Of a stretch of 64,000 bases of DNA, positions 30,128-64,000 are shown in pieces; positions within the stretch are counted from its first letter, which is position 1; the number at the start of each line of letters is the position of its first letter. The position numbers were made by a program, and so were the translations under genes. The stretch comes from Geosiphon pyriformis uo1 (taxonomy: Eukaryota > Fungi > Glomeromycota): positions 680,156-744,155 of the forward strand of contig JAAOMT010000523.1 of the NCBI GenBank assembly GCA_016748015.1, read 5' to 3'. Below the pieces are notes generated by a model. It saw only the letters and a list, made by a program, of their open reading frames with translations. It had not been told where the DNA came from and made no database searches.

Positions 30128-30238
30128 ATTATGTGAGGGTTAGATTTCGAAGGTTCAAGTCCAAATTAAATTTATTATCCGATAAATTGATTGATCATAA
30201 GATTACAGATACATCAAATTAAAAGCATATGTAGTCAA

Positions 30239-33018: not shown

Positions 33019-33149
33019 CTTCAGATCAATTTTCTTTCGGATTTCCAAATTTCCTATTTTTGGGTGATTTTGGCATGTGATCAGATTTTTACAAGAATTA
33101 AACTAATAAGGCCTGTGCTTTTAGAAATTTTAATTTCAATCTCTTTGCT

Positions 33150-35549: not shown

Positions 35550-35720
35550 AAACACTAAACAGCACCACAGACAGTAGAGATTTCTCGCGTAATGCGATCG
35601 ATTTATCTCTGGTTCGTGGAGTGTTTTATTGCTGAGAGGAGTATTCTTACCAACCCATTTTAATCACGACACTAGAAAATGCTTCCACCAAAGATGTCGT
35701 TTCATGCTATGGGTACATTC
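35550..35720 (+). ncRNA. Box H/ACA snoRNA, predicted guide for LSU rRNA pseudouridine at the yeast 25S U2314 equivalent (snR86 target); 5' end approximate
   Basis: H box AGAGGA 35635-40; stems ACCCAT/ATGGGT and ACGACA/TGTCGT; ACA at 35715-17, 14 nt after the upper stem; guides TTAATC + TTCATGC pair with rRNA GCAUGAA-UG-GAUUAA; TATATAAG at 35507. Confidence 0.85.
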
Positions 35721-35949
35721 TTTATAAGTTCCTTTGGAAAACATTTAATATGTGAAAAATTTTAATTTCTCAAATGTATTAACAATTAACAAAACAACAT
35801 ATATGAAAATGTTAGATGTTATTTTGGCTTTTTTCGCGAAATAGCTTTTAGAAGAGTGAATTATTAATCCAAAAAAGTCAAATTAACTAAAAAAAGTTGA
35901 GGCAAGGCTCTGAATTGATCCCATCGAATGGAGAGAGATCTTATGCTCA

Positions 35950-37416
35950 TTGGACCATCTTTCTATAAATCCAGCTGAAATTTTTCAATTATTTCTGGCC
36001 TTCATAAAAATGCATGGTTTTTTGCAGACCAGAATATTTTCGACTTGCTGTATACGCTCGGCAACCAGTACTCTTTTTTCCCTTAAATTAAAACCCTCTA
36101 TAATACGAGATCACAAGTCAAAATTCGGCGAGCTTTTTCGAGGCTACTGTTTACTCCTGCCCCTTAAACGATATTTACCACCGAAAACGCACCTTTTGAA
36201 TTCTCATCAAAAGTCTACAATTCATACATATAGTCGCAAAGGAAGACTTCTCCCTCCTCTACCGACTGTTACTCCCGTTTTTAAGCAGGGTTTCACTATT
36301 TTCTTCCGAGGTCTCAAACATGTTTTAATAGGCTCTATAGCATTTTTAACTTTATTGTTCATAGTATCGCGTGGCGTTCACCTCTATATTGAGCATTTTT
36401 ATTACTCTACTCCTTCCTCAATTCCTTCAAAAGCGCGTGATTTCCTTCGTGCAGCCTATATTTTTGAAGAATGGTATCCAAACCTGGAAAACGCCCAGAA
36501 AATCCTTTACGATGCTTTTATAATTATTCAAAAAGAAAAAGAATTACCTCCAACTGATCCAATAGTGTTGGATATTTTGCTCCGAATCGCAAATAATGCC
36601 ATGAGGCTTGGAAACCTTCGAGAAGCAAATTTAGATTATAAACGCATTTTTGATGTCTTAATTTATCAAGATGATGAGGTGAACAGGAAAAAAGCGATAG
36701 ATGTTGCGAAAAAAGCCGCGAAAATCTCTGTTAAAGTCAAAGATTTTCGATTGGCAGAGGATTATTTGATATGGACGATTGAAACATTGAACAAAGAACT
36801 TCACACTAACAAAAACTTATCATATAGTGGGAATAATATTGAATCCCAAGTTTTCAAAAGGACTACATCTCAAGACTCCTTTATTAATTTGCAATCAAAG
36901 ATGAGCATGGATCTAATTCAATGTACAGTAATGCTTGCTGGAGTTTATGCTACACAAAAGCAGTTCGATAAAGCACTCCCTTTATACTTAGGCTCTCTTA
37001 AGATGCTAGTAGAAAGAAAGGCTACAGAAAAAGATCCTGAAAAGAAGGATTTATCAAAAGAATTGACAGATTCTGATAGTTTTCATCATTGCGGAGATGC
37101 AATCATAATGGGGCATTTAGGAGAAATCTTTTATGCCATGGGAAAAGTAGAAGAAGCTATGGGTTGGTTTCAAAAAGGATTTTTGATTGCAAAACGCGGG
37201 AGTGGTATAAGAAATTGCGATGAATGTGCAGGTGTTATACTTAATAATCTTGGGCTGATAAATGAAAAGAAAGGATTATTGGAAGATGCTAAAGCCTTTT
37301 ATTCTCAAGCACTTTCATTTGCTGAAATCGCCGATGATGTTGAAGGTCGTGAAGAGTTTTCTACGAATTTACATCGAATACAAATCCATGACGAGGAAAA
37401 TAAAAGTTCTGAATAA
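35950..37416 (+). CDS. Intronless TPR protein, probably mitochondrial inner membrane (Mgr3/TTC19-like); likely ATG at 36010
   Basis: 488-aa ORF; basic/Ser-rich presequence-like N-terminus, one TM segment, TPR-like helices (GHLGEIFYAMG, LNNLGLI..A..FY..AL). Confidence 0.75.
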   Translation: MDHLSINPAEIFQLFLAFIKMHGFLQTRIFSTCCIRSATSTLFSLKLKPSIIRDHKSKFGELFRGYCLLLPLKRYLPPKTHLLNSHQKSTIHTYSRKGRLLPPLPTVTPVFKQGFTIFFRGLKHVLIGSIAFLTLLFIVSRGVHLYIEHFYYSTPSSIPSKARDFLRAAYIFEEWYPNLENAQKILYDAFIIIQKEKELPPTDPIVLDILLRIANNAMRLGNLREANLDYKRIFDVLIYQDDEVNRKKAIDVAKKAAKISVKVKDFRLAEDYLIWTIETLNKELHTNKNLSYSGNNIESQVFKRTTSQDSFINLQSKMSMDLIQCTVMLAGVYATQKQFDKALPLYLGSLKMLVERKATEKDPEKKDLSKELTDSDSFHHCGDAIIMGHLGEIFYAMGKVEEAMGWFQKGFLIAKRGSGIRNCDECAGVILNNLGLINEKKGLLEDAKAFYSQALSFAEIADDVEGREEFSTNLHRIQIHDEENKSSE

Positions 37417-41175: not shown

Positions 41176-42554
41176 TTTTTTTTTTTATTACAAATTTTAT
41201 AAATGAAGTCCAACCACTATCTAATACATAGAACTAAACTAAGTAAAACCAACTAAACACAGCTTATGCACAAACTACATGTAATCAGCCACTCAAGCCA
41301 GACAAGGCAACACTATACACCTATAGTAACAAAAGCATCACCACCCAAACCAGAGAAAAAATGACACAATTTGCGCCTACCAAACTTAACAGCAAAAGAT
41401 TTTATAACACCAAGCATGTAAACAACACTAGCCGACAACATAGAAACTACACTGCTGAACAAGCCAGAAATCACACTATTATCCCCAACCAAACCAGTTT
41501 TTTCCATCTCTGCTCTATGCATGGTCCTAACAATCCATATTCAAGTATACTACAACTTTACCACAAATTTGATGTATTCTACTAAGGTCTGAGTAGTTTT
41601 TTTTTTCCCCTCAAAAACTGAAACAGCTTCAGCATACCAATCTCTCATTACAAAATCCTTGCATACTGCTGTATAAAAACTCATATTTGAAGAACATAAC
41701 GAGAGTGAGAGCAAAATAGCAGACAGAGATGAATTCAAAAGATCAGACATCAACATCTATTTTTTAGCAGCTTTAGCCAAAATGTCCCCATGGAGACCAA
41801 AGTCATCAGAATAAGTGAAAACATGATTAAAGAACTCCACCTTATCACACAGCAAACACAAAACACCAGAATAACTTCTGCTATACAATTTTTTTTTAAC
41901 TGCAATTGGCAGCTACCTATATACAGCCTTCATTAAATACATGCATAAATTGGCTGACTTCCTACTGGTGAATTCAGAAAGTATGTGTGAATCAGGATGC
42001 CAAATTGCTGCAGTAGCATCCCAATCTATTTTTTTAATCATAACATTTGGAACTATATCAAAATCCAGACCAGCCTCCCAATAAGCACAGTATATTAACT
42101 GGTGTAAGTCCTGAGCAAAATGACAAACATTGCCAGATATGGTAGTTTTTTTAGTGACTAGAAACCTCTCCTGGATATTAACTGGCAAAGAAAAAGACGA
42201 GAAAGTAGCCTCATTAGCCAGCATGTCAGCTCTTATATTGCCCAATACATCCAAATGTTCTTTAACCTTTACCCACTTAATTGAAATATTTTTGTTTTTA
42301 AGGAGATTAACAATTTGCAATCTTTTGATCCAATATTGGTTATGGAAGTTAGGTGTAGTCAAAGAAGCCTCAAAAATACAGGCATCAATTGCAGATTAAC
42401 TATCCAAGTACAAAACCACTAAGCAAGAGAATGGAACACACTCCAAGACCAACACTATAGCTTGCAGTCCAGCTAAAGTAAAGGACAAAAATCCAGCAAC
42501 CTTAACTCCAATGCCTGCATTTGCAGCCAGAAAGTATGCAGCTGCCCTACCTGC
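41176..42554 (-). mobile_element. LINE 3' part (RNase H, CCHC, 3'UTR, poly(A)); same element as 43421-44533, 53623-54005 and 60216-60503
   Basis: AGRAAAYF..LQAIVLVLE..WVKVKEH..GNIRADMLA; T11 at 41176-41186. Confidence 0.88.
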
Positions 42555-43420
42555 TGTTACGGGATGGTTTTCTTGTTATATTTAATTGCTGATATCCCGC
42601 TTTAATTGCAATCAGTCTTTCATGAGTTCCTCAATTCTATTTGTGTAATAATGTCACTGTTATACTGAAGGCTTTCTTTTTATTGTTGCGATGTAAGTTA
42701 TTCTTTAATTCTTGATTGTTGTGTGTGTTTATGTACTCCTTCTCAGAGGCTGAACTGAAATCTACCCACTGTCTGGGGTCTTCTCTGAGGCTATCCTTGC
42801 AATTGCCTGATGTGTTTCTCTAATCTAGAAACACAGAATGTTAATGGTCTTTAGCGCTTTTTTAATTCTCACAATAAAGCTTTTATCAATTAGTAACAAT
42901 GTGAATAATCTTGATCAAGAATTATTCTTCCAAGGGATTCAGTTGATGAATGATAGTTTCATTCAATAAATAATACAAGTAAGTTTCTTAATACTTTGGG
43001 TTGTGATAGTTCAGTTTTAAATATTCTTTTTCATTTCTTTTTGATTTTAAAGGTTTCTTGGGATATTTAATTTGAAAGTATGATTTAAAGTGGAGTTTGT
43101 TGGATAAAATTGGATCTATTGCTTGATAAGTTATGATTTTTATTACTTGATTGATTCTTTCCCAATATTAAAACTACTGTATATATACATGTTTGTAGTT
43201 CTACGAGAAAATACTTTCTTTTTGATATTTCAACCTAGTGCTTGCTGCTATCACCAGTTGGTGTTGGCTGCTATTGTGAACTGGTGCTTGCCACTATCAC
43301 GAGATGGTGTTTGCTACTATGTTAATCATTACCTTTCTAAGATTATTACTGTGCTATATTATGATTGAATAGTTTGTATTATTTTTATGATTCTTTTTGC
43401 TAAATTCTTAAACCGTAACA
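42555..43420 (-). repeat. Family B LTR in inverted orientation with non-matching flanks
   Basis: Reverse complement of 13902-14768; flanks CTGC and GCAT. Confidence 0.95.
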
Positions 43421-44533
43421 GCATCTACATAGTATATTTTGAATATTGCAAGTGAATTTTTTGTGATCAATGACATCTTAATTAATAATGATAAGATAGT
43501 AGTGATTTCTATCAATCAAGAGGTTAGGAATGCTTCACTATTAATTAATAGATCGCCAATTTTAATTGCTAAAAAGGGTAAGTTACACCAATATTTGGGT
43601 ATCTTTCTGTCAACTGAGAGTTTTTTTAAGCCCAGTTTGGCTCAAGCCCATAAGGATGTCAGGTTTTTTTCTAATATAGTATTAAGAAAAGCTATTATAG
43701 ACAAGCAATCCTGTTATTTGGTTTTGGCAGTTTTGCAACTCATTGTTAGCTATTGTATACAGTTCAGTTTTGTTGCTTTAGATGTGTGTTATAAGTGAGA
43801 TATTATAATTAGAAAAGGTCTTAGAGCCAAAGTTGGTTTACTATATGACTTCTCCAGTAAGGTCTTGCATTACTCTTCTTTATATGGTTTAAAGCTCTTT
43901 AAGCAAGTGCAGTCTGAAAGAAAACTGGTGTCACTAATTTTATTTTCTAATGGCCATGGCATTTTTGAACATTTATTTAATCATAGATTTTTGGATTTGC
44001 AAGTTCTGGGATGGTCTCTTTTGAATCCTTTGCAGTTTTCTGTTAAGTTGCGTGTTAGTCTTATTAACAATTTTTTGGCAGAGGTGGTAAAGATTTTTTT
44101 GGAGAATGAGTTATCTTTAGCAAACAATTTACCTTGTGCCTTTTATGGGTCTGGCAATTTCCTGATGTCTGGCATTCTGAGTCAGTCTTTGTATTACAAA
44201 TCCATTTTTTCATTGAAGCATTTTGGTGTTGCTTTTAGTGACAGACTTCTTGACAAAAAAGAAAAGATGATAGACTGGAAACATTTTGGCATTGGAAGTG
44301 ATTGAATCCAAGGGGTTCTGTGTCTTACTGGTTTTCTTTGACATCTGATTTTATGAACAATTATATTTCTTTAGGGGTCAGAGCTGCTGCTGCTACTAAG
44401 GAGAATGTATTGAGTGTTTTGGATTCTGATAAGTTCTTTGAAATTCATAATAGTCTACTGGAGGTATGATCTGATTGTATTGAGGTTTATACAGATGGAT
44501 CCTTGAGATGTGCTGGTTCTGTTGGGGTGGCGG
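43421..44533 (+). mobile_element. Middle segment of the LINE (RT C-terminus to RNase H start), inverted relative to the rest
   Basis: AST*YILNIASEFF..HQYLGIFL..VYTDGSLRCAGSVGVA. Confidence 0.88.
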
Positions 44534-45032
44534 TGTTACGGTTTAAGAATTTAGCAAAAAGAATCATAAAAATAATACAAACTATTTAATCATAATATAG
44601 CACAGTAATAATCTTAAAAAGGTAATGATTAACATAGTAGCAAACACCATCTCGCAATAGTGGCAAGCACCAGTTCACAATAGCAGCCAACACCAACTGG
44701 TGATAGCAGCAAGCACCAGGTTGAAATATCAAAAAGAAAGTATTTTCTTGTAAAACTACAAACATGTATATATACAGTAGTTTTAATATTGGGCAAGAAT
44801 CAATCAAGTAATAAAAATCATAACTTATCAAGCAATAGATCCAATTTTATCCAACAAACTCTACTTTAAATCATACTTTCAAATTAAATATCCCAAGAAA
44901 TCTTTAAAATCAAAAAGAAATGAAAAAGAATATTTAAAACTGAACTNNNNNNNNNNNNNNNNNNNNAGAAAAGAAAATCAAAAAGGAAATAATAATTAGC
45001 AATAATTCATTGCTAAAAAGGAAAAGACAAAA

Positions 45033-48000
45033 GTGGTGACAAAAACCCCTAATCTTACTGTTTTTGAATTCTGCCGTGCTATTTACACACAAAATCAAAG
45101 TGATCTTAGATTACCAGAAGGGTGTTGTCCAGCAGAATCTGTCCTCACTTATTATATCAATGCCAGAATAAATTATCATATAGGAAAGGAAGAAGAACCA
45201 CACGACGCAAAACTTGGATTGTATAGAGAATTATCACAATACACTACAAAAGAAGTAGCAGTAATAGCCGCAACTATTGTTAAAATCTATCGAGAAATTG
45301 AGCAATACACCAACGAAAATTTTCCAATATCCACAGGAAACACTAGGGAATGCGCCAACAAAACCAAAGAAAATTTAGAAACTAATCAAGAAAGTAACCA
45401 GCAAAAACTAGAAACACCAGCTCAAACGCCAAAGAAAACTGTCACTCAATCAATAAAGAAACAACATATTTATTCACCAGAAGATAAATCNNNNNNNNNN
45501 NNNNNNNNNNAAATATCCCAAGAAATCTTTAAAATCAAAAAGAAATGAAAAAGAATATTTAAAACTGAACTATCACAACCCAAAGTATTAAGAAACTTAC
45601 TTGTATTATTTATTGAATGAAACTATCATTCATCAACTGAATCCCTTGGAAGAATAATTCTTGATTAAGATTATTCACGTTGTTACTAATTGATAAAAGC
45701 TTTATTGTGAGAATTAGAAAAGCGCTAAAGACCATTAACATTCTGTGTTTCTAGATTAGAGAAACACATCAGGCAATTGCAAGGATAGCCTCAAAGAAGA
45801 CCCCAGACAGTGGGTAGATTTCAGTTCAGCCTCTGAGAAGGAGTACATAAACACACACAACAATCAAGAATTAAAGAATAACTTACATCGCAACAGTAAA
45901 AAGAAAGCCTTCAGTGTAACAGTGACATTATCACACAAATAGAATTGAGGAACTCATGAAAGACTGATTGCAATTAAAGCGGGATATCAGCAATTAAATA
46001 TAACAAGAAAACCATCCCGTAACATNNNNNNNNNNNNNNNNNNNNGAAAGTAACCAGCAAAAACTAGAAACACCAGCTCAAACGCCAAAGAAAACTGTCA
46101 CTCAATCAATAAAGAAACAACGTATTTATTCACCAGAAGATAAATCATACCATTTTTCACTAGAAAATAAGATACAAATTCCATTAGGAGCTGCATCATC
46201 ATCAACATCAACTCCACAAATGCCAAAAACTCCTAGTTATATTGATAAAATTAAACAACGTAACTGGGGAGACATACCAATTACAGGAGGATATTCATCA
46301 CTATTCCAAAACCCTCTTTTTCAGCCAAAATTTTAGAACAGAGTTTGAAAACCGTGAAGAGGAGTCTGAATCAGAATCCGAAAAAGAGACCAGCAAAAAA
46401 ACAATCACAAGACCAGTTACTGGAACAAGCAGCCAGTCCAAAAACCAAGAAACTCGTGATCAAGAAGAAGAACCGGATATAAGGGAAGCCACCTTTAGGA
46501 ACACTCAAGGAAATATCATCCCACGTCCTCTTAGACCAATAAACCCACCAGCAGAAAACAGCAACGAAATAACCACACCATACATTGCAAAACTAACAGA
46601 TTTCTCAGGAAAGGAAGAAGAAACGGATGTGCACACATGGCTCAGAGAAGCACAAAAAGCCATCCAGGCAAATAACTGGAATGACCAAAGAGCAATTCAA
46701 ACATTACCTTTCTTCCTGAAAGGCACAGCCGACTCATGGTATCAAAGCCTGGAAACAAAACCCACGAGCTTCGCCGAATTTAAAAATGCACTCCTGGAGT
46801 ATTTTAGCGACCCAAACGCCGTAATCCAACTACAGAACAAATTCAATACTATCAAGCAAAATACCGGTGAAACTGTTACCCAATACCTTGCTCGATTCAA
46901 TCGAATTTGCCATCAGATTGAAGCGATTGAACAAGGATACTACACTGATCCTCAGGTTTTAAATCAGTTTATTAGAGGATTAAAAAGCAGCATTTTAGGA
47001 AGAGTACGCCCTGCCCACCCTAATTCCTTACCAGAAGCCATTATGCTCGCCAGAGCCCTTGAATCGGCTAAGAAAGAAGCTAACCATAGTCAAATGGTTA
47101 ACATGGTAATGGAGGAAAATAAGACAGAAACATTAGAGAAAAGAGTAACGCGATTAGGAGAAGAACTCTCTAAGAAAATAGAAAGTTACCTCATCCCGGA
47201 TCCGAGAAAAAATACATACCAACCACCCCAAAGACGCAGCCAGGAAGTCAGCGACAGTCGAAATAATCACCTGTCGCGCCAGGAATTTAGAACAGAAACA
47301 CGCGCCTGCCATTTTTGCAAACGCGTAGGACATTTGATTAGTCAATGTCGAACGCGAATGATGCAGAAAGCATGCAAAAATAATTACTACACGCCACCCC
47401 AAATGCCCAGAAACCAGTACACACCAATACCATGCCAATATCCCACCACGTATTAAAATCAAGGAGCTTACCAGCAACAGCCCATGATAGCCAACCTGAA
47501 TTAGCGTTCCGAGGCCCGAAATCAGCCCATGTGGAACCAGAACGCGTTGGTCCAGAGGAATCCAAACCGTGCTGGAACCAATCAGCAAACCAATCCAAAC
47601 TACCAAAATTATCAACAAACTTACTTTAATATACTGGAAAACCTGATCATTGGAAACAATGATGGTAGAAACATAAACAGAACCAAGAATTCCTCCAAAT
47701 TGAGCCAGACAATACCACCAGCAGTTGCCACCNNNNNNNNNNNNNNNNNNNNNNNNNGCATAGTAATACCTACAAAAGTATTAGTAATGGACGCTACACA
47801 ATATCAAGCGTTAGTAGGGAATGACTGGCTAACAAAAGCCAACGCCACCCTAGACTGGACCACCCAAGAGCTTCTGATCAATTATAATGGCCACCAGGCC
47901 AAAATTCCAGCCACCTGTGGCCACTTCCAAAAACCCAGCACCAACCAAAGACCTACCTTCGAATTTGAGGAAAATCCAGCACTACCAGCCATTGAAACCT

Positions 48001-51000
48001 ATCAGCTCTCTTAGGCTGATGACCAAAGAACAGGACTACCAGCCGTACCAACGTGGACCAGCGAAGAAAGATCTGAATAGAACCAGGTAAGTTCACGAAG
48101 AAACCACCAGTGACGCAGACCAAAGCTAGAATGCTCGGTTTGCAAGAAGAAACTCTCGTCTATGACTGCGTGCAGCACACCGGACGAAGACCCAAGAAAT
48201 CCCACTCACTACTATTGTAACCGTTGTAACAAAGAAAAATACGGTTACCCAGAAAGACACGGAAAATGGGACGAGGAACCATGCCTCACTTGTGGAGAAC
48301 CGTTACCAAGAGAGTGCGACTAGAACGACTTACCAGGCAGAGGAGGAACGTGTGACGCAACTTGCCAATACACGATCCTCATCTGTGACTGGGTAAGAGG
48401 AGGAACGCCGTTCGAAGCAGCGTTCAACAGAGCGTTAAAAAGACTACAGCACTACCCACACGACGAGGACGAGTTGTACAACACCACACAAGCCAAAGTA
48501 AGAGGAGGAACCGCCAAAGAAATACGACGTTGGAAAGAGTCAGCCGAAGTAGCCGACGAAGTTGCCAGCTACAACATGTTCGACCCAGTGGACGAATTCC
48601 AGGACTACTACCAACAACTATGCCCCACTCGACAAGAGCAAAAACAATACCTCGTCCAAATTAACACTTATCTCTGCGAAAACTGTCTCATCCCGTGCCA
48701 AAGTCAGTGCTGTGAAGAGTGTCAAGACGAAAGGGACTTAGAAAGAAAAATGGAAATTGAGAATCAGCAGTCTCAAAATCAATCAATAAATCAACAAGAC
48801 TCACCTGACGGTCCCAAGTCAGAAAAATTTGTAGCCTATACCGACCTAGAACAGGTGACCGACATCTGATACTTCGACAACGGGCACTTAGGAATAATAC
48901 CTGAAAGAGCCCATCCAACTGATGCCGGATTCGATCTACGTTATCCAGAAGACCAATCCACAATGTTACCACCCAGGAGCATCACCAAAATCGACCTAAA
49001 AATAGCGGTTGAAATTCCGCCAGGAATAATGGTTCAAATGGCGTCATGATCAAGTCTTGCGAAAAAAAGGAATAAGCATTCAAGGAGGAGTAATTAACTC
49101 TGGATACACTGGAAATTTGATGGTTTTGCTACAGAATAATTCAGAAAAGTCTTATACCATTGAATCTAAGAAAAAGATTGCACAAGCAATTTTCCTACCA
49201 TTGGTAAAAATTGGGAAATTCGTGTCAGTGAAAAATCGTGAGGAATTGTCACAAACAACGAGAGGAACTTTTGGTTTCGGATCGACAGGAAAAGGAATTG
49301 AAGCGAATTTCACTGAAACAATAGGGGAAAAAGGCAAAGTAATTAAAAATGAGCAGTTCATCATGCTCCTACTATATGGAAAATCAGAAATAAGAATAAA
49401 AAGGACAATTAAAGAAAAAGACCTAATATTTGAGCCCTACCCAGAAACTTGCCAACAGTTTCTCATAGGACTTACTAACCTTTTTATTCCAGTTGATAAA
49501 GCTCAATAGATAAAAATTTCTATCGCAAACACCACAGAAGAACCCGTCTACATTCCGGAAGATACCATCATTGGATACCTCGGAACGGAGCTAGAAAACG
49601 TGTCAACACCACAAGAAATTCTAAATTTCCCAGAAATCACCCTCTACTGTGAACTCACTTCAATAAATTGGCAACAACTGGTAGAATGCTATCAATTTAC
49701 GCCAGAAAAATTGGCCAAATTAAACATTAGAACAATGGATCCCGACCAACAGTGACAATTAAAAGCATTAATTTTAAAATACTCTGATATATTTTCAAGA
49801 AATGGCGAATTTGGAAGAACCAACTTGGTTCAACACCAAATCCCCACTGGAGATGCCAGACCTGAAAAACAACGCGCTTACCGTGTCCCACCAATGGAGC
49901 ATAATTTTATCAGAGAAGAAGTCCAAAGCATGTTGGAAAAAGGAATAATACAACCATCAATGAGCCCATGGTCCTCACCAGTTGTTTTAGTAAGGAAAAA
50001 GAACGGAAAAATTAGATTTTGCGTCGACTATCGCAAACTAAACAGCAAAACAACCAAAGACTCATACCCAATACCGTTAATTGACGAAATCTTCGATGTT
50101 TTTGGAGGAGCAAAATGGTTTTCTATACTGGACTTGACCAGTGGGTACTAACAAGTAGAAATGGACCCAAAGGACAGGCATAAAACAGCATTGACAACAC
50201 AAAATGGCAATTATGAGTTCAATGTAATGCCATTTGGATTAACAAACACTCCCGCAACATTCCAAAGACTAATGGACGTAATTTACTCCGGAATCCTGTG
50301 GCAATCTATTATTGTCTACTTGGATGATACAAATGTTTTCTCGTCAAAATTCATGGATCATCTCCAATATTTACAACAAGTTTTTGAGAGATTGAGACAC
50401 GCTGGACTTAAACTAAATCTAGAAAAATGTTTCTTTGGGAAAAATGAGCTAGCATTTTTAGGACACGTAGTTGGAAAAGATGGAATAAAACCAGATCCAT
50501 CAAAAATAGACAAAGTGAAAAATTTTCCAGTACCTCGAAACGTCTCAGAAGTTAGAAGCTTTTTAGGACTCGCATTTTACTACCACTGCTTTGTAGAAAA
50601 CTTTTCAAACATCACCAAACTCCTTAATTACCTACTATCTAAAAATGTGAAGTTTGAATAGACTGAAGCACAACAAAAAGCTTTTGAGTACCTTAGACAA
50701 AAGCTCATTGAATCACCAATAATAATCTATCCGAATTTCAACAAGAAATTCATTTTGGCCACAGATGCCTCTGGAACTGGACTTGGAGCCATTCTGTCAC
50801 AAAAAGATGATAATGGAAGAGAACGTGTAATTGCTTATGCCAGCAGAAATCTCAGTACGGCAGAACAAAACTATGCAGCACATGAACTTGAATGCTTAGC
50901 AGTAGTCTGGAGTTGTGTTCACTTTGACACATATTTACGGTACCAACCCTTTGAGATTATGACAGATCATAGAGGTCTGGTCTGGTTAAATAACAAGAAA

Positions 51001-51123
51001 GCGCTAAAAGGAAAATACGCCAGATGGTCACAAACATTAGCACCATACGATTATATTATCAAATACAAAGAAAGTACCAAAAATGCTAATGCCAACTGTT
51101 TGTCAAGAATGAGACACACATAA
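45033..51123 (+). pseudogene. gag-PR-Cys-rich-dUTPase-RT-RNaseH polyprotein, family B (some stops, gaps)
   Basis: ORFs 45033, 46242, 47529, 48474, 49057, 49825, 50161 and 50755; ends ANANCLSRMRHT*. Confidence 0.92.
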
Positions 51124-51152
51124 AAATCACCAACCCACCCGTCACAACAACA

Positions 51153-52381
51153 ATGAACAACCACCTTTACAAAAACCTCAGCCAATACTTGGAAACACTA
51201 CAAATAGACGAAGAAATGCCAGTAAAAGAGCTAATTAAGCTCCAAAAATTAGCAAAACACTATTTCATCCAAAATCACATATTTTATTACCAGAATCGAC
51301 AAAATCCAGATAATCCATTAAGAGTTATAACCACGGATGAAAAAGAAACTATCTTATTTAACATGCACTCAGATATTCATTCAGGCCACTTTGGAAAAAC
51401 AGCAACCATCCAACGTGCAACTAGCCATTACTATTGGCCAAAAATGAGCTCAGACATAATCCAATACATAAGAAATTGTGACCCATGCCAACAAAGAGGA
51501 GGAGCAAAAACAATGGAATTATTAAGACCAATAAAAGTTGGACAGCCATTTGACAGAATCGGAATTGATTTAGTTGGACTCTTAACAATAACAACAAGAA
51601 ACAACCGTTATATTGCAGTAGCCATGGACTATCTCACCAAATGGCCAGAAGCTAGAGCTATTAAAACAGCTGATGCTATTTCCGTAGCTCAATTCGTACA
51701 TGAAGACTTAATTTNNNNNNNNNNNNNNNNNNNNNNNNNNNNNNNNNNNNNNNNNNNNNNNNNNNNNNNNNNNNNNNNNNNNCAGCAGTACTACTAGCAT
51801 ATAGAACAGTAAAACAAGATACTACACAATTCACACCGTTCGAACTAGTTTATGGAAGAAAAGCCACATTACCCATTGAACTTACTATTCCAACTTATCC
51901 AAGTGACACTATCACGGAAGCAACATTCCAGGAAACACTACTTAGAAGAACATACGAATTAATGGGAACTTTAGAAAACAAAAGAAGAAAAGCAGCACAA
52001 AATATTGAACAATCACAAAAACAACAAAAAGTGAGACATAATAACCAGTTACCAGATAATATAATTAGCTACAAAATTGGAGATAAAGTATTGTTGCATC
52101 GTACAAAAATGGAAAAACAGTGGAGTGGAAAATTTGATCACAAGTGGGATGGACCATTTTATATTCACAAAATACTTGGAAATGGAGCATACAAGCTAAG
52201 ACTAGATGATAAAATATTAAGAAAAGCAGCACATGATAACCGGCTGAAATTCTATTACAGTAAACCAGTAATAACAACAAAAACACCCAGAATTGGAACA
52301 CAATTACCTTTAATTCTACCAGAACAAATTCCACGAGATTTAGAACCAATAGTTTTAATTGAACATTATTCAAAAAGATAA
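51153..52381 (+). CDS. Integrase in a separate ORF (HHCC, catalytic core, GPY/F-type C-terminus; gap inside)
   Basis: Own ATG; HSDIHSGH..CDPC, RIGIDLVG, DYLTKWPEA, KWDGPFYIHKILGNGAYKL. Confidence 0.88.
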
Positions 52382-52465
52382 TTAATCTTAGATCATGACA
52401 AAAATGATTTAACAACCATAAAAATGCATACAAAAGATTCCAAAATAGCAGTCAAAATTAAAACA

Positions 52466-53111
52466 ATGATACTTATTCCAGAAAACATCAACAATATAAC
52501 TCAACAATTAGTTGAAAGCTTACAACAATTAAAATCCGATCTGGAAATCACAGTTAATAGCTCCAAAATAACATACATAAAAAGAACAATAGAAAATCCA
52601 AAAACAAGAAAAGAACATAATTTTGAACCATATAATATTGCCAAATATAACAACAAATTTATCAGCAAAGTTATTGAAAAATTAGAGATAGCATTGGGCA
52701 ATACATTAATAATGAAAAAAATAGAAATAAGTGAATTAACACCAGACACATTTAGCAACTTGAAAACGAAATTTCCAATTAATTACTGTTATTATCAACT
52801 AGGAAAGCACTTAAACATACAAACATTATACTCAAAAGACTCAACTAGAGTGTTTGACAAAACAACTATCCAACTATTAGAACCTTTCATTGGAAAAACC
52901 AACACTACATTCCATTCAAAAACAGTTTACAGAATTTTCAAAGCATTTGAAAACTGTCACAAATTATTGTTGGACCCAACCATAAACATAATAACAACCA
53001 ACAGTATTGGACGACTTACCACCTCGCAATTTCAAGAATTACAACAACAAATTAATCACACAGTATTGAACCACTATAGTAACTTAGAATTTAATGAAGA
53101 AATTAACTTCG
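52466..53111 (+). CDS. ORF3 accessory protein, family B (3' end in gap; alternative ATG at 52424)
   Basis: Open for over 210 codons; distant homolog of family A ORF3. Confidence 0.75.
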
Positions 53112-53622
53112 NNNNNNNNNNNNNNNNNNNNNNNNNNNNNNNNNNNNNNNNNNNNNNNNNNNNNNNNNNNNNNNNNNNNNAAGTATTAAGAAACTTACTT
53201 GTATTATTTATTGAATGAAACTATCATTCATCAACTGAATCTCTTGGAAGAATAATTCTTGATCAAGATTATTCACATTGTTACTAATTGATAAAAGCTT
53301 TATTGTGAGAATTAAAAAAGCACTAAAGACCATTAACATTCTGTGTTTCTAGATTAGAGAAACACATCAGGCAATTGCAAGAATAGCCTCAGAGAAGACC
53401 CCAAACAGTGGGTAGATTTCAGTTCAGCCTCTGAGAAAGAGTACATAAACACACACAACAATTAAGAATTAAAGAATAACTTACATCGCAACAGTAAAAA
53501 GAAAGCCTTCAGTGTAACAGTAACATTATCACACAAATAGAATTGAGGAACTCACGAAAGACTGATTGCAATTAAAGCGGGATATTAGCAATTAAATATA
53601 ACAAGAAAACCATCCCGTAACA

Positions 53623-54005: not shown

Positions 54006-57000
54006 TGTTACTCATAAAAAGAAAACAGTTATAGAAAATAGTAGACCAATAGGCAAGTAGTAGTTAATATGTAAACATATTGCTCAGTAATATGGAGCAA
54101 TATCAGAAATTATAGCATATTGCTTAGCAATGTAGAGCAATGTCAGAAATCAAGGCACATCACTCAGCAATGTAGAGCGATGTCAAGAAAATATGACACA
54201 TAGCACATCATTCGGGAATGTGAGCAATCTTATAGAACATCAATTATGTATATATAGTGGTAACATTAGAAGTAGAAAAAGCAGAATCCATTAGTTAGAA
54301 ACCTTCTACATCACAAATATCAATAAATAATTATTCACTATCTCAATTCACTTTCTACTATTAACACTTTATGTTGATAGTAATTAATATTTAACCATAC
54401 AAGAACAATAGCTCTTGATCATAGCTATTAACAGGATATTAACTTGTAAATCACCTTGGCTTATTTTTTACATTTCTTTATTTTCTTTTATTTCTTTTAT
54501 TTAATTTTGTTGTATACTAATTGATTAAAAGCACTGAGTTATTAATGTCATGGATAGCCTGGTAAAAGACCCAGAAATAAGAATAGCATTATATATATTA
54601 TTGGATAGCTTACCAGAAGGACACAACTGCCAGAATAAATCTGGCCACCAAGCTGAGAAAAAAATTGGGAAACAACTTACACAAACTAACTGCATATAAC
54701 ATCAACAAAGAATCTCTGTTTATTATACAAAGAACTCAACTCTAAAACCTTCAGATACAACCAACATATCAGTATTACTAGCACTATTAATCAATTAAGT
54801 ACCAAGTTATGGGTTTGTTATTTGCTTTGAGACTTCAAATAATTACCTGTAATATTTGGTGCTCTCTGTAAGATATAATCTTACAGAGAACCTGTACCAA
54901 CAACTCCATTCAAAAGTGGCAGAATCAGAAAACATAGGAGCAAACCATTTAGGATTCATGAAATCCTTATTTCAACACTACTGTTAACACTTGGGATTAA
55001 CCCCAAATCACATATCAGCAGAATCAGCCTTCAACTTTTACGTCAATAAAAGAATTGCCTACTTATTAAAAACAGCAACAAACACTGAATCAGTAAGGGA
55101 GACTTTTTACAATAAATTAATCCAAAACAGCAGCTTACCAACAAACTATAATTTCACATCTATCATTACTGAGATTAATAAAAAAATTGAACATCACACC
55201 CAACAGAAATATCCAATCACCTATGCAAGTAAAGACAAAAGAAAACTACAAACACCAGCAGTAACACCCAAAAAAATACAACCAACCACTTGGAAGAAAC
55301 ACAGAATTGAATCACCTACCAATCCATCATATTATTATACTCCTAAAAGCACCATCAATATTACATTAACAGACATGTCCACATTGAATGCGACATCAAC
55401 ATTTGGATGATTCTCATTTCAAAGTAAACAAAAGAAAGAAGACTTATTAGGACCATACAGTGTGTATTTTGAAGGATTTAAATCATGATTGCCAACACCA
55501 TCAGGATTTTGATCACTACCATCTCAACCAGATTTTGGAACTGCGAGTCCTTGGGAAGTCCCAGAATTGGAAGGAGAACAAGAAGAAGAGAAAAAAGAAT
55601 CTGAGGATCAGGAATTTACATACCAAAACCTGATTCCAGGAAACCTGGAATTTGAAACCCTGAATGTTTAAACTCCGAAAAATCCAAACCAAAAAAATCT
55701 GGAAATCAAAACTCTGAATTTTCAAGCTCAGCCAAATCAGAATAACCAAAACCCCAACTTAATTAATCAACAAAACTTACCTCCAGTAATTGTTATTGAT
55801 CAACCACCAATTAATCCAATAGCCAAATCCATACAACAACCACTTCAATAGCTATCACAACAACCCAACTTAGATCCAATGGCCTATGCACCAATCGCAA
55901 AACTTGACAATTTTACCAGTGAAGAGGACAACACTCAAGTATGGCTAAACAACATAGAAAAAGCCATCACAGCCAATGGATAAAATGATGTCTGAACAAT
56001 GCAAGCCATTCCCTACTTCCTCAAGAATACTGCTAATTTATGGTATCAGAGCTTGATTAATAAATCACAAGACTTTAATGCCTTCAAAATGGAATTCTTA
56101 AGATACTTTAGCAACAATAACAGTATCAATCACCTAGTTAATACATTCACCACCATGAAGCAAGGAGAAACTGAAGCAGTCACTACTTACCTAGGACACT
56201 TCTATAGAAACCTGCGCCAAATCCAAGCAATTGACACCAACTATTTCACAGTGCCACAGATTCTTAACCAGTTTATCTATGGCCTGCACAGCAGTATCTT
56301 GCAATATGTACGTTCATTGCATTCAGGCATCTTTTAAGACATAGTCACCCATGCCAGAGATTTCGAATCAGCTGAGTTAAAAGCCAACCACACCCAAGCT
56401 GTTAATCTAGTAATGAACGGATCATCTAAATTGGATTCCAAATTGGAGAAATTCAATAAAACAATTAATCAAAAGATAGAGGAATACTTAGCTAACAACA
56501 ATCAGACAATTTATCAACCACCACAACGACACCACAATCAAGAAAACTCTAATCATCCACAGAATCAACCACATCCATCTTTATTGACCAATCAACAGTG
56601 GCAACAGGAAATGCATATCTGCCACTATTGTGGTAAACAAAAACATATCCAAATCAACTGCTGCCAGTGTATAAATAACCAATAATTGGAAAATCAATAT
56701 CAAAGCCCCGATCACTGGTTCTCAACTCTGAATCATCAATCAAACTCAGCACAATATCAAACCACTTATCTGCCAATAACACAGCAACCAATCTATCAAC
56801 CATCAGCATATCAAATCCCAATTTATCAACTGCAGACAATTTACCAGCCACAGCTACCAGTAATATATCAACCACAGTTACAAGTAATCTATCAGCCTTA
56901 ACAATCAATCCAAACACTACCCCAAAACCCAGCTCAAATGACATCAGGAGATCTCAAACCCAGAATCACCCAAAACTGAAGATCGGTGATGGTCATTCAC

Positions 57001-60000
57001 CAACCAATCACCAGCCCCTTTTACCAACTCACTGGATTATGCTCTCGGAATTTGGATACTGGTTCCAACCAAAACCCGAATTCCCAACACTATTTAAGTC
57101 TTTTGGTTACTCCAGAAAATGCCACTACCAACAACCCAAAACCCCATTAACAAATAACACTTACCAACAACATCCTACCAGCAACCATTACCAATGACAA
57201 ATCATTGGCCACCATTTTTCCCTTTGAACTCGAGGAAACCACAATAGTACTGCTATTCAGTAGAGCTGTTCTAGAAGAAAAACCCATTACAGCTATGTAC
57301 ACTAATATGAAAGTTGATGGACACTTCATCAAACTGATCTTAGATAGTAGATCAGCTGGCAGCATCATCACCAGACAACTCATGGATCAATTAAGTTGCC
57401 AAGTTGATCACACTGCCAGTGCTAGAATTATCACAGCTGATGGAGCAACCAAAACACCCATTGGAGAGATTGACAATCTATTCATAGAAGTCAATGACAT
57501 TATTATACCAATTAAGGTACTGGTAATAGAAGCCACCCAGTACCAGGCTCTCATTGGCAATGACTGGCTGTTTAAAGCCAGCACTATTATGAACTGGAAC
57601 ATACAAGAGGTCCAACTCAGTCAACATAACCAACATACAAGGGTACCAGCCATCTGTGGTCACTTTAAATCAAATCATCTCTCCACACCATTGATTGAAT
57701 TGAAAGAAGAAAAACTGAAACCTACCTGGGAGGCATACCAAGTGTCGTGGGCTGACAATAACCACAACAAACTGCTGCTAATATTATTGTGAGACAAGTC
57801 AGTAAAAGGAAAACAAAAAGAAAAACTCACTTGGAAAACTGACAATCTGACATGGATTGACAATGATGACAGTAAACCAACAGTAAATTGGGAGTGGAAA
57901 AAAGATAAAGGAAGAGACAAAGAGAAAAGAAAAGAAAAAGACACTATCCAAGCCAACAATACTTATATTCCAGACACTTATGCTTTATCACAACAGTCTA
58001 CCTATTGCTGACCCAAATTAATATGCATTAATTGCGGCAAAAAATTGTCATCAATGGGTGTATGCTGTGGCAATAATAAGGAATACCAAATGGCGACCAA
58101 ATTCTACTACTGTATATGTGTTATAGAACACTTTGGATAACCGAAAAGACAAGAAAAATGGGACAATGAATCTTGTCTAGCTTGTGGTGAAACCTTACTC
58201 GATGAAAGAATGTGGAACAACATTCCTGGTCAAGGAGGAATATGTGACACTTTGTGTCAGTACACAATCCTTATCAGCAACTGGGTCAAGAAAGAAACTC
58301 CAATAGAAGCTGCTTGAAGAAAAGCTGTGCAATGATTAAACAGTTGTCCACATGACAATGATGAGATCTGGAAAATGGTAATGGCCAAGATAGAAGGAGC
58401 ATCATTTGAAGAAATCAGAGAAATCAAAAACAACCCACCAGAACTCATAGAACTTAACTGGGACCCAGAACCAGTTATAAATCTTCTAGATCCAAAACAA
58501 TTTCATGAACACTACCAAGAGTTGACATCCACAAAAGAAGAGCAAAAGCAACACCTAGAATAATTGAATACTCAACTATGTCAACACTGCCTAATTCCTT
58601 GTGATTTTCAATATTGTAATGAGTGTGACCTTATTTACAATCCACCACCATGCATGATCTACACGATCCCAGAAGAAAACAAACCAATGAGCAGCTGCAC
58701 ATCGGAATCGGAATCAGTTTTCAATCCTGATTCAAACTCTAACAACAACGATGATGAAAACAATGGTTCCAGCTCCACTTTAATTAGCAATACAAATTAT
58801 GACAATTCAAACTCTGATTCATATCCCAAAACATTTATCACACTTCTTGACCTTACCAAAGAGCAGGAACTGAAATGGTTTAGTGATAATAATGAAGGTA
58901 TCATGCCTGAATGCATGCACAATACTGATGCAGAGTTTGATCTGAGATATCCCAGAAAAGATCCCATTAAATTGAAACCACATTTGCACACCTGCATTAA
59001 TCTCAAAGTAGCATTGGAAATCCCAGCAACAACAATGGTTCAACTAGCATTCAGGAGTAGTTTAGCAAAAAAAAGAATAAACATCAAAGGAAAAATAATT
59101 GATGCAGGATATGTAGGAAATATCATTGCTATGCTACAAAATGATTCAGAAAAAGCATACACTATAGACCCAAATAAAAAAATAGCACAGGCAATATTCC
59201 TATTTCTGGTAAAAATAGCTCAGTTAGTGTCAGTAAGAAACAGAGTCAAACAAACAATACTTGAAAAAGAAGTATTAAAATTAATTCAAAATGAAGATTT
59301 CAACAGAGCTCAATATTAAAAAGGAAGAAATATTGTTACTCATAAAAAAAAACAGTTATAGAAAATAGTAGACCAATAAGCAAGTAGTAGTTAACATGTG
59401 AGCATATTGTTCAACAATATGAAGCAATGTCAGAAATTATAGCACATTGCTTAGCAATATAAAGCAATGTCAAAAATCAAGGCATATTGCTCAGCAATGT
59501 AGAGTGATGTTAAGAAAATATGACACATTGCTCAGCAATGTGAGCATTACTCAAGAAATCATAGCACATTGCTCGGGAATGTGAGCAATTTTATAGAACA
59601 TCAATTATGTATATATAGTGATAGCATTAGAAGTAGAAAGAGCAGAATTCATCAGTTAGAAACCTTCTACATTACAAATATCAATAAATAATTATTTACT
59701 ATCTCAATTCACTCTCTACTATCAGCACTTTATGTTGATAGTAATTAATACTTAACCACACTAGAACAATAGCTCTTAATCATGGCTATTGATAGGATAC
59801 TAACTTGTAAATCGCTTTGGCTTATTTCTTACATTTCTTTATTTTCTTTTATTTCTTTTATTTGATTTTGTTGTATACTAATTGATTAAAAGCGCTGAGT
59901 TATTGATGTCACAGATAGCTTGGTAAAAGACCCAGAGATAAGAGTAGCATTATATATATTATTGAATAGCTTACCAGAAGAACACGACTATCAGAATAAA

Positions 60001-60215
60001 TCTGGCCACCAAGCTGAGAAAGAAATTGGGAAACAATTTACACAAACTAACTGCATATAACATCAATAAAGAATCTCTGTTCATTATACAAAGAACTCAA
60101 CTCTAAAACCTTCAAATACAACCAACATACCAGTATTACCAGCACTATCAATCAATTGAGCACCAAGTTATGAGTTTGTTATTTGCTTTAAGACTCCAAA
60201 TAATCACTTGTAATA
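54006..60215 (+). mobile_element. Ty3/Gypsy LTR retrotransposon, family C; internal deletion of RT, RNase H and integrase
   Basis: LTRs 54006-54854 and 59334-60215; PBS at 54857; gag, CHYCGKQKHIQINC, LILDSRSAG protease, Cys-rich domain and dUTPase all in one frame; PPT 59318-59330; TSD GCAC/GTGC. Confidence 0.95.
54857..54872 (+). promoter_or_regulatory. PBS TGGTGCTCTCTGTAAG, fits the 3' end of an elongator tRNA-Met (...CUCACAGAGAGCACCA) with one G>A
   Basis: Starts 2 nt after the LTR end; tRNA identity inferred from the typical tRNA-Met(e) T-stem and acceptor end. Confidence 0.65.
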
Positions 60216-60503: not shown

Positions 60504-61499
60504 TGTTACCAGAGGTTTTTGGTCTTTTCTTAGCTCTTGTATGTTTGTTGTAATGCTGTTAATTCACGATTATAGGAAGTGTTTGAACCTCTGATAACTG
60601 AATTTATCTTCAAATTATCTCCTATAATTTGAACTGCTGGGCTTATAAGTGGAATGGCCAAGTCCGTGCCAGTTACTTTGTATAGTTACATTGTAGTAAA
60701 CGTCAACTCTTTTCCAGGAATTGCTCGTCTGGAAGCTTACTAAAAATATGTAGTTATTTTGCTATGAAAGTCAACTTTTCTACAGGAATTCTTGTCCATA
60801 GGCTACCCAAATAATTTATAATAAGAAAAGAAAGAGAATAAAAGAAATGTAAAAAAAAAGTAAAACTGATGATTTATAGAAGTCGTTTCGGATCCAGGCC
60901 TGGAAATGCTTTAACAATCTACTGAAATTGGTAGTTAATCAATTTCAACCTGTTAGTAGAAATTGGTTAATTTCAAAGGAAATAATTAAAAATTTGGCTT
61001 TTTGAATTTATTTGATATTTATTTTGTTTTTGTGTGTAAAGGATGATTCTAATTATTAAATCTGAAGTAAAATACATTTTCTCGAAAAGAAAAGCTCTTC
61101 TTTTATACAACTTGTTGTAACACTATTTTATGAACTTGAACTTTGCTCTTTTCTACAATTTTGCTGAACTAAAGATATATTTTGGTGAACTACAAGTTAT
61201 TTCTGCGAACTATTAGATATTTTGGTACACTATCAATTATTTCGGCAAATTTCTACAAATTTCGGCAAACTTTTAAATGTTATATATTTCAGGGTATTAC
61301 ATGATTGATTATCGCACTTAGGTTACATTTGTGTTATATACAAATTGGATTATTAATTAAATAATAATTTTGGACATTTTGCTAATGTAATAAGTAATAA
61401 TTTGAAATAATAATATATGCTAATTAATGATAAAATTTATAAGGGTAATTTTATGCTAAACAATATTTCTAATTTTGTCTGATAACATAACCTCCTCCT

Positions 61500-62176
61500 C
61501 AAGACTGAGCTCCATCAAAGTCCAAGTACTGTCTGTAATTTCCAGATAATAATCCAAAATTATTGAAGAAATTTGGTCTGAAAATTGTTGAAATTTCAGT
61601 TCTGTAAGCTTTTCAATGTATTGAATCTTTAAAGGCTGTAAAATTGGGTTTTGTAGGACATTTTCACAGGTGTGGAATAGGTCATAAAGTTTAAGAGCAG
61701 CTCTTAGTTTATAATGACTGTTTGTAGGTCCAGCTGTTGTCTTGAATTGATTGTGGAGTTGTTTCTAAATAGCTTCTTTTGTGAGATTTGCTGCTGTAAG
61801 CTCCCATTTTTGTTCATGAAGTGTTTTTTTCAATGTAAAAATATCTATATATTAGAGTATAGTTGTAGTTTTTGTCATTAAGACACAGTTGAAGTTTTTG
61901 TTGAATAGTAGCATTCGGTGGAATACTAATAGGAGTGAGCATTAAGTTTTCTCTTAAAGCAAGCTTTAGAAGTTCTGGCAGGTGAATTTCAGAATAACTT
62001 CTTGTGTTTTTCTTATACGGGTGATATTTTTGTGCATTTGGGGCTAAATTTGTAACTACTTCTGTTTGGGTATAATTAATGTGGTTTCCAGTAACAATAA
62101 TAGATAATTCGGGTATTGTTTTTAAAGCTAACATTAGTTTTTGGGATAATTGTTAAATGTTTTGAGGAATAGACAT
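61500..62176 (-). pseudogene. ORF3 accessory protein, family A copy 2
   Basis: MSIPQNI*QLSQKLMLALKT.. aligns with family B MILIPENINNITQQLVESL..; contains stops and a frameshift. Confidence 0.8.
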
Positions 62177-62299
62177 TATAAGAGATTTTAAAATAAAAGA
62201 AAATTATTTTTGGTGTATGGGTTTTTATGTTATTTTTGTTTTTGTTTTTGTGAGATTGTTTCTAAATTATAATGATATAACTATAATGATAAATTTAAA

Positions 62300-63685
62300 T
62301 TAAGTGTTCAAGTTGAGAGGTTGTTCAATGACAACTATTGGTTCTAATTTTCGGAGAATATCTTTGGGATTGATTAAAGGGGAATGTGTACCAATTTGTG
62401 GAATTAATGATTCAGGATTGTTTCTGGAATTATAGTGTTTCAAATGATCTCCATGTGCAACTTTTGCTAGGATTTTGTCATTAAGTCTTAGCTTGTATGA
62501 TCCGTTGCCTAGGACTTCATGAATAAAGAATGGTCCATCTCATTTATTTTCAAATTTTCCACTCCATTGTTTTTTAGCTTTAGTTCTGTGTAAGAGAACT
62601 TTGTTTCTGATTTTAAATCCATTGGTAACTGGAGGCAATTTGTCATTATGCCATTCTTTTTGTTGAGCTTGGGAGTGTTTAATATGGGTGGCTGCTATTT
62701 GTCATTTTCTTTTTAACATGCTAAGCAAAGTGTAGGCTCTTTATTGTAGTGTTTCTTAGAAATTGTTTTTATCGATTGTTTGTGTTGGGTATGTTTTCAC
62801 AGTGAAACTAATTGGTAATGTTGTTGTTCTTTCATAAGTTAAATTAAATGGTGTGTGTTTTGTGGTATCTTGTTTTAGTGTTCTATATGCCAGTAACACT
62901 GATGGAATAAAGAAATCCCATTTTTGCTTAAAATTGGTTGAGACTTTGGCTAATGATTCACACAATGTTTTGTTGAAACATTCTACAAGTCCATTTGTTT
63001 GTGGATAGTAGGACAAAAATAATGGTCTCTTAACATTAAATTGTCCACAAATTTTCTGGATTAAATTGTTCACAAAATGTGTTTCTTGATCAGATAAAAG
63101 TTCTATTGGGCATCTATGTTTACAAATGATGTCTTCATAGATGAAATTTATTACTGATTTCACATCTGCTCATTGAATGGCTCTGGCTTTAGGCCATTTG
63201 GTAAGATAGTCTACAGCTACTGCAATATAACAGTTTCCTTGGTTTGTGATAGGGAGTGGTCCGACTAAATCAATACCAATTCGGTCAAATGGCTGTTCAA
63301 TTTTGATTGGGTTTAAAGGTTCTGTAGGGCGAGTTTCTCTTCTTCTTTGACAACTATTACAAGACTTAACATATTCATAAATGTCTTTTTTCATTTGAGG
63401 CCAAAAATAATATGCTAGTGTTCTCTGGGTGGTGCTTTCTTTTCCTAGGTGTGCTGATGAAGGGTCTGAGTGCATGTTATATAAAATGGTTTCTTTTTCA
63501 TGTTCTTGTATTAATCTAAGCGGATTGTCTGGGTTTCTGAAGTTTCGATAATAAATAATGTTGTTGTGTAAGAAGTATTGTTTGGCTTGTTGTTGTAACC
63601 AATGTTTTTCATTTGGGGACCAATCTGTTGGAATTGTTAATGTCTCCAGATATTGTTTAAGATTGTTGTAATTTTCAGGGTTCAT
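62300..63685 (-). pseudogene. Integrase in a separate ORF, family A copy 2
   Basis: MNPENY.., HSDPSSAH..CNSC, RIGIDLVGP, LLSDQETHF, PQTNGLVE. Confidence 0.92.
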
Positions 63686-64000
63686 TGTTTGTTGTTTTGT
63701 TGTTAATTCAAATGAGTGTTGTTTTTATGTTCTAATCTTGCCTCATTCTTGAGAGACAATCAACATTGGTGTGGAGTTTTCCTGGTTTGTGATGTACAAT
63801 GTATCAGTAGTTGGCTAAAAATCCTGTCCATCAAGTTTGTTTGGCATTTAGCTAAGTGTTTTTGTTTTGAAGCTATTTGAGTCCAATATTATCAGTGATA
63901 ATATCGAATTTTTTGGGTCTGAGGTAAAAGTTGAAGTAATGTAGGGCCCAGATTACTGCTGCAGTTTTTAATTCTGTTGCAGGGTAGTTCTTTTCAGCTG

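Follow-up and report, generated by a model that had tools for sequence, protein, structure and literature searches.

A cysteine-rich domain between protease and dUTPase in Ty3/Gypsy retrotransposons of Geosiphon pyriformis

Among the described systems that come closest to the locus studied here is PosPlaTy3-5 of Postia placenta, a dUTPase-bearing fungal Ty3/Gypsy element treated in a survey of chromodomain-bearing elements (PMC2864245). In the betaretroviruses MPMV and MMTV, NC-dUTPase has been proposed to attach dUTPase where reverse transcriptase (RT) synthesises DNA (PMC4531489); NC is a basic Gag product of 81-95 aa, which is frameshift-joined and lies upstream of the protease (PMC4531489, PMC1802613). 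In the Juno LTR retrotransposons of bdelloid rotifers, a Zn knuckle follows the dUTPase (PMC5408684). As to the zinc modules themselves, the treble clef has been described as a zinc knuckle, loop, beta-hairpin and helix, in which the knuckle and the start of the helix supply two ligands each, and L24 has been assigned to the TRASH family (PMC4999995), while FCS fingers have the spacing C-x2-C-x14-30-C-x3-C and some of them are non-sequence-specific binders of RNA and DNA (PMC4047054).

In this study, we analysed a 64-kb window of Geosiphon pyriformis DNA, the whole stretch being numbered from its first letter, in which a homologous Cys-rich domain of about 200 aa lies in frame between protease (upstream) and dUTPase (downstream) in three elements, B, C and A. 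The dUTPase between protease and RT in the Pol of an LTR retrotransposon is shared with PosPlaTy3-5; however no mention of a Cys-rich domain was found in PMC2864245 (the words 'zinc' and 'PHD' are absent from its main text), and the elements treated there are chromodomain-bearing, whereas the integrase of B gave no chromodomain match. As in NC-dUTPase (PMC4531489, PMC1802613), a zinc-binding module, here a predicted one, immediately precedes dUTPase in the polyprotein of a retroelement, but the Geosiphon domain is 200 aa long, all-Cys, downstream of the protease and partly acidic, and the likeness is one of analogy, not homology. In Juno, too, a zinc module has been added next to dUTPase, in the interval from protease to RT (PMC5408684), but this is a single knuckle after dUTPase rather than three predicted sites and a helical bundle before it. 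The TRASH/FCS/L24e group shares the spacing of the second finger and has L24-type chains on which the first finger superposes (PMC4999995, PMC4047054), although the Geosiphon domain lacks the FCS tripeptide and a Pfam score. No description of the domain was found in the literature searched, a search that had most subscription journals and supplements outside it; the part of PMC6338049 examined treats accessory domains of helicases and does not contain the Cys-rich domain.

Organization of the elements in the window

The window is AT-rich eukaryotic DNA, with ordinary genes in its middle and decayed LTR elements at either end. The features of the three elements are as follows.

Element B
45511-46024, + strand, 5' LTR, part between gaps
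46188-47453, + strand, gag with capsid and zinc knuckle (Pfam)
47760-47915, + strand, C-terminal half of the aspartic protease, the remainder lying inside the assembly gap 47733-47757
48114-48725 (widest reading to 48767), + strand, Cys-rich domain with one stop inside, TAG at 48321 (tblastn, alignment)
48126-48245, + strand, finger 1, C-x2-C-x24-C-x2-C, predicted treble clef and the sole net basic part
48267-48365, + strand, finger 2, C-x2-C-x19-C-x3-C with an invariant W-x4-C-L-x-C, TRASH/FCS-like spacing, predicted treble clef
48357-48540, + strand, predicted three-helix bundle continuing from finger 2, weakly HTH-like (pLDDT 94-97 in a homologue)
48663-48722, + strand, C-terminal site C-x2-C-x3-C-x4-C-x2-C, preceded by an acidic helical stretch (modelled with low confidence)
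48870-49293, + strand, dUTPase, with a stop and a one-base frameshift near 49047-49062
49294-49677, + strand, conserved segment of ~130 aa between dUTPase and RT, without Pfam name
49753-51120, + strand, RT and RNase H (Pfam)
51150-52378, + strand, integrase with H2C2 and Tf2-type SH3 (Pfam)
53181-53622, + strand, 3' LTR, 97% identical to the 5' LTR

Element C
54006-54854 and 59334-60215, + strand, LTRs
57286-57651, + strand, protease
58012-58638 (widest reading to 58647), + strand, Cys-rich domain with 4 stops (tblastn)
58870-59244, + strand, dUTPase; RT and integrase are missing

Element A
2243-2605, + strand, protease
2820-3422 (widest reading 2811-3446), + strand, decayed Cys-rich domain with 5 stops (tblastn)
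3548-3970, + strand, dUTPase
4565-4953, + strand, RT

Element B reads LTR, gag, protease, Cys-rich domain, dUTPase, conserved segment, RT/RNase H, integrase, an extra ORF and LTR, and its LTRs around gag and a pol ordered protease, RT, RNase H, integrase place it among Ty3/Gypsy elements. By its integrase, B does not classify as a chromovirus, as the C-terminus gave no chromodomain match and SH3_Tf2-1 (E 6.7e-6) is the sole match at E<=1 in 51785-52378. The gag frame is that of the protease, the Cys-rich domain and the start of dUTPase, and this single frame contains 8 scattered stops. The two LTRs of an element are 97% identical in B, 86-88% in C and 87% in A (over the visible 174 nt), while the LTRs of A, B and C gave no blastn match to one another (word size 7, E<1e-3), in agreement with the description of three families with unrelated LTRs in an earlier reading made from the sequence only.

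Several further observations were made in the window. The segment of ~130 aa between dUTPase and RT is ~30% conserved with the environmental protein P0126 and has a counterpart in A at 4112-4351; judged by eye, it is possibly a degenerate second dUTPase-like fold. The extra ORF downstream of the B integrase (52382-53110, +, ~240-280 aa) has no Pfam match, and counterparts are seen as ORFs or repeats near 7428-7958 (+) in A and near 61100-62300 (-) in a minus-strand element. In element C (54006-60215) the dUTPase abuts the 3' LTR and other family-C models go on to RT; the lack of RT and integrase in this copy is best read as an internal deletion. More family-B LTR copies with 96-98% identity lie at 13901-14771, 42552-43421 and 44534-44946, one of them inverted, and these are apparently solo or partial. 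The 3' part of a fourth element (60512-63914, -), which has an integrase H2C2 and is 74% identical to A, leaves the window end before reaching the Cys-rich domain. A Tc1/mariner-type transposase fragment (HTH_SB, HTH_Tnp_Tc3_2) is found at 17534-17950 (-), and host genes within 19185-37416 encode ribosomal L6e, an eIF3 subunit, PIG-A, a PIG-Y-like ORF, a mitochondrial carrier and a TPR protein. Below the Pfam cut-off, there are hints of PAZ_2 (E 0.0036) and RNase H (E 0.0068) in the regions 45006-45548 (+) and 41913-42395 (-), that of PAZ_2 being immediately upstream of the B 5' LTR.

Conservation and range of the Cys-rich domain

A tblastn search of the whole window with the B domain had two matches, to C at 45% and E 5e-52 and to A at 26% and E 4e-23, and no others. 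The alignment scores were 472 for B/C, 230 for B/A and 211 for C/A, compared with shuffle means of 32-37 and per-pair maxima of 51-66 (300 shuffles each), and the cross-family score was highest in the sense frame (472 versus at most 243 for the other five frames). Nucleotide identity at codon positions 1/2/3 was 0.58/0.72/0.41 for B/C and 0.53/0.61/0.34 for B/A, and position 2 was the most and position 3 the least identical in all three pairs; because identity runs in the order 2>1>3, the comparison indicates that the domain is under selection in its sense frame. The linkers flanking it do not align across the families and the domain is therefore sharply bounded. The family Cys are retained at 13 of 13 positions in B and 12 of 13 in C. 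The sequence-only reading had quoted Cys-rich motifs in B, C and A, placed them between protease and dUTPase and described the copy in A as decayed; the motifs are all present there, the location is the same in all three elements, and the A copy, besides its five stops, keeps 8 of the 13 Cys.

The same reading made its case dependent on Cys conservation in the wider family, and this was found. We assigned 45 alignment rows manually to eight lineages, of which four consist of one environmental sequence each, and the 13 Cys are retained across five to eight lineages: C59, C62, C82 and C86 in 8/8, C10 in 7/7, C7 in 6/7, C35 and C38 in 7/8, and the five C-terminal Cys in 5/5. Misses are single decayed copies, and other Cys, for example at position 20, are lineage-specific. 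No His is conserved in fingers 1 and 2 across lineages. Finger 1 is net basic in all four sequences counted (K+R 7-11, D+E 4-7), acidic residues greatly outnumber basic ones in the C-terminal third (D+E 11-14, K+R 1-3), and the linker from domain to dUTPase is 44-86 aa long, acidic and variable in seven proteins.

All 31 relatives from a first protein search belong to G. pyriformis. A second search gave 228, and the best 120 that were listed comprise 119 from G. pyriformis and P0126 (ENA), an unbroken 1064-aa frame with protease, Cys-rich domain (49% to B), dUTPase and RT. Trimeric dUTPases have five conserved motifs; read by eye, all five are intact in the P0126 dUTPase (Pfam E 2e-20), and the window copies are broken. 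When 1.84 billion representatives were searched with a profile, 418 matched, and the 20 most divergent of the best 150 listed were 17 G. pyriformis proteins and three ENA proteins (P0126, P0210, P0271); weak relatives elsewhere are possible among the matches below the best 120 of 228 and the best 150 of 418. Of the pattern matches in viral contigs 0/58 and 0/21 were confirmed, and of those in metagenome contigs 0/189 and then 1/47; the last, L001, holds a 33% relative that is likewise downstream of a protease. A match in a bacterial genome (L002, 1/19) was discarded, since it is out of frame, lies over another gene and is taken as chance, and phage records gave none. Among the matches listed, all species-assigned homologues are thus G. 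pyriformis gene models, to which copy B is up to 95% identical, and the environmental members are four sequences, one with an unbroken frame. On these searches the known range of the domain appears narrow, one named species and four environmental fragments.

Across 283 domain proteins, a protease was found upstream in 160 and a dUTPase downstream in 116, and 63 were domain-only fragments. Protease and domain trees were built from 12 of 16 picked rows, the other four being dropped for short matches. Both trees recover families A and B, with deeper forks unresolved or different. One ancestral insertion of the domain is the simplest reading; instead of three independent captures, we regard the families as diverged branches of one lineage that inherited it along with the protease. 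On the same 12 rows, the domain changes ~2-3 times faster than the protease, with the Cys retained.

One run, X1, from one study and flagged 'RNA?', gave contigs on the minus strand of family B (window 45936-49669 and 53283-53485) with 14 joints. Nine of these end exactly CT..AC on the + strand and three more can be read as minus-strand GT-AG if an N run, a shift by one base or a single substituted letter is allowed for, which makes 12 of 14; the remaining two are an assembly gap and a non-canonical joint. Donors are GTAAGT/GTATGT-like and one intron has TACTAAC ahead of the acceptor. The RNA crosses gag, protease, the Cys-rich domain (with two introns inside it), dUTPase and LTR, and is best read as a multiply spliced antisense RNA from a less decayed family-B copy and not from the window copy; the joined window exons, from a decayed copy, have no frame longer than 99 codons. 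Over the family C domain X1 has no contig, which is uninformative either way. Since 55 of 69 differences between window 46221-48964 and the X1 contigs are A>G or T>C, the window having A/T where X1 has G/C, copy B has lost G and C, and this loss looks like methylation-driven or RIP-like decay. It is hardly credible that no protein domain is selected here and that the conservation comes from chance in a Cys-rich stretch or as a by-product of this antisense RNA, which crosses the domain in family B: the sense frame scores best, codon position 2 is the most conserved, each frame of the spliced product contains 11-20 stops and the environmental lineages keep Cys and Trp.

Predicted fold and class of the domain

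A first AlphaFold model of copy B from a 10-row alignment (pLDDT 46) was set aside in favour of one of the P0126 domain (residues 341-556 of that protein) from the 45-row alignment, with pLDDT 74 and pTM 0.54 (residues 1-80, 63-84; 81-140, 94-97; past 150, 32-61). The predicted fold begins with a treble-clef finger; a second finger follows and passes into a bundle of three helices, and the five-Cys site at the C-terminus is modelled with low confidence. Binding of three zinc ions is predicted. Finger 1 agrees with the description of a treble clef in the predicted model, with helix 36-43 beginning at C35/C38. In VIA-align, residues 1-44 superpose on treble clefs with rmsd 1.9-2.6 A and Z 3.3-4.4, namely on the Rim2 finger (Z 4.4, 1.9 A over 41), on a pre-60S ribosomal chain (Z 4.4, 2.3 A over 41) and on several L24-type, LIM and FYVE chains. 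Residues 82-135 superpose on small helical bundles with Z 4.2-5.8, tied with unrelated bundles and with many HTH proteins among the matches, including the DNA binders SSV1 F-112 (Z 5.7, 3.1 A over 52), TetR-type proteins and Mu transposase (Z 4.4). The best match of the domain, Z 5.8, is in the range below 8 in which a similarity may be a common arrangement.

Neither Pfam, PHROG, PDB nor Foldseek gave a significant match: PDB sequence searches reached E 0.51-0.85 at best, PHROGs E 0.015 in one of nine members, and Foldseek of the P0126 model gave none at E<=0.001 in PDB or BFVD (PDB E>=0.13), its weak top rows being GATA3 (E 0.13) and LIM domains. In the ESM Atlas, the best scores were 0.83-0.84, under the lead level of 0.9, with zinc ribbons as the nearest named clusters. 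No chain among those searched has the tandem finger-finger-bundle-finger layout. The suggestion that this is not a standard Gypsy domain and a putative multi-zinc one is in agreement with these searches, in which no confident match to a described Gypsy Pol domain was found.

Known classes were considered in turn. Finger 2 has the FCS/TRASH spacing (C59, C62, C82, C86) and, in the prediction, the strand-strand-helix order of a treble clef, fold-search matches being mostly at 1-47 and 62-138; by sequence, it has [VT]-C-D instead of F-C-S, and the B and C stretches match no Pfam family at E<=10. RING domains are cross-brace structures with C-x1-3-H-x2-3-C/H in the middle; the domain has four C-x2/3-C pairs and no conserved C-x-H pair, the RING entries of Pfam score no better than E 0.19, and this on a piece of 43 aa, and residues 1-44 superpose on one treble clef, so the earlier 'RING-like' label is not retained. 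PHD ligands are C4-H-C3, and the absence of a conserved His and scores below cut-offs (PHD E 0.31, zf-HC5HC2H E 0.022-0.18) argue against this class. LIM domains have a His ligand and a 2-residue spacer between fingers and GATA fingers are C-x2-C-x17-18-C-x2-C; here the spacer is ~20 residues, the loop 24 residues and Foldseek E>=0.13, and both were rejected. A His-Me finger (HNH) nuclease was likewise rejected, as no catalytic-type His is kept across lineages and the BFVD HNH rows have E>=0.02 and TM<=0.2.

Possible functions and meaning

We tentatively suggest, at somewhat less than even confidence, that this conserved accessory domain of the Gag-Pol polyprotein in a fungal Ty3/Gypsy lineage is a nucleic-acid-binding module that holds dUTPase at reverse transcription. 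The protease would cut upstream of the domain and leave it joined to dUTPase; nucleic acid would be contacted by finger 1 and by the helical bundle, and the domain would hold the enzyme on RNA/cDNA inside the particle, where dUTP would be removed at the place at which RT works and less uracil would enter the cDNA. We favour this reading because the parts of the domain resemble nucleic-acid binders, dUTPase is a fixed neighbour, and NC-dUTPase and Juno are precedents. The fixed order, the weak treble-clef and HTH-type likeness, the FCS spacing, the basic finger 1 and the betaretroviral precedent are consistent with it. It is weakened by the lack of a significant fold match to the model and by equal-scoring treble clefs that include protein binders (Rim2, LIM). 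In addition, the C-terminal third is acidic, unlike NC, the variable acidic linker could be cut, the Gag of B already has its own zinc knuckle, and the fixed order of domain and dUTPase may come from one ancestral insertion alone.

LIM, Rim2 and FCS fingers are often protein binders, and the domain could instead be a protein-binding adaptor that is released from Pol and counters host defence, be it silencing, methylation or deamination-type mutagenesis, for which retroviral zinc-binding accessory proteins offer an analogy. The acidic net charge of the domain, its faster evolution than the protease with Cys kept and the strong G>A/C>T loss in the copies are in line with this; however it resembles no known counter-defence protein in the libraries searched and Pol would be a poor source for a factor acting before transcription, and we consider this reading, which the sequence-only reading had also raised as an anti-defence module, possible but doubtful.

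A chromatin or DNA reader that steers integration, as a substitute for the chromodomain absent in the lineage, would be consistent with the lack of a chromodomain match in the B integrase and with the weak matches to GATA3 (E 0.13) and VAL1/2 PHD-like domains (Z 3.5-3.7). Known integration-targeting modules are on the integrase C-terminus, whereas this domain is ~800 codons upstream of the integrase, with dUTPase, RT and RNase H in between, and the PHD and GATA ligand patterns are lacking. Chromatin reading, which the sequence-only reading had proposed, therefore fits badly in a role of integration targeting and is unlikely. Its other label, 'DNA-reading', would agree with the predicted parts of the domain.

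It is quite unlikely that the domain binds no ligand and serves only as a zinc-stabilised structural or oligomerising spacer, needed for the polyprotein to fold, to be packaged or to be cleaved in the right order. The poor order of the C-terminal helices and five-Cys site as a monomer (pLDDT 32-61) can mean an interface and the odd Cys count may point to sharing of a zinc site, but conserved surface-type residues near fingers 1 and 2 (K-K-L-S, K-W, W72, G-G-x-C-D) suggest a ligand and, to our knowledge, most Ty3/Gypsy elements need no such spacer. More speculative, and very unlikely, is a uracil-control cassette in which the domain would be a three-zinc Vif-type factor blocking a fungal cytosine-deamination or RIP-like defence while dUTPase clears dUTP, and which would have aided expansion of the lineage in early-branching mycorrhizal fungi.

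The Cys-rich domain is real and under selection, is without a name in every library searched, and is a new accessory part of an otherwise known type of element; it extends by one unnamed family the few accessory modules recorded for the Pol of LTR retrotransposons. The unbroken natural homologue P0126 makes the proposed coupling to dUTPase directly testable. An LTR expansion has been described in Geosiphonaceae (PMC11952901); the lineage bearing the domain fills the genome of an early-branching mycorrhizal fungus, and well over a hundred 'hypothetical' Geosiphon gene models are explained as transposon debris. If the domain does hold dUTPase at reverse transcription, retroviruses, rotifer elements and fungi would each have come independently to couple zinc fingers with dUTPase. 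This would be relevant to the question of why a dUTPase is present in retroelements at all, which is called unclear in PMC2864245.
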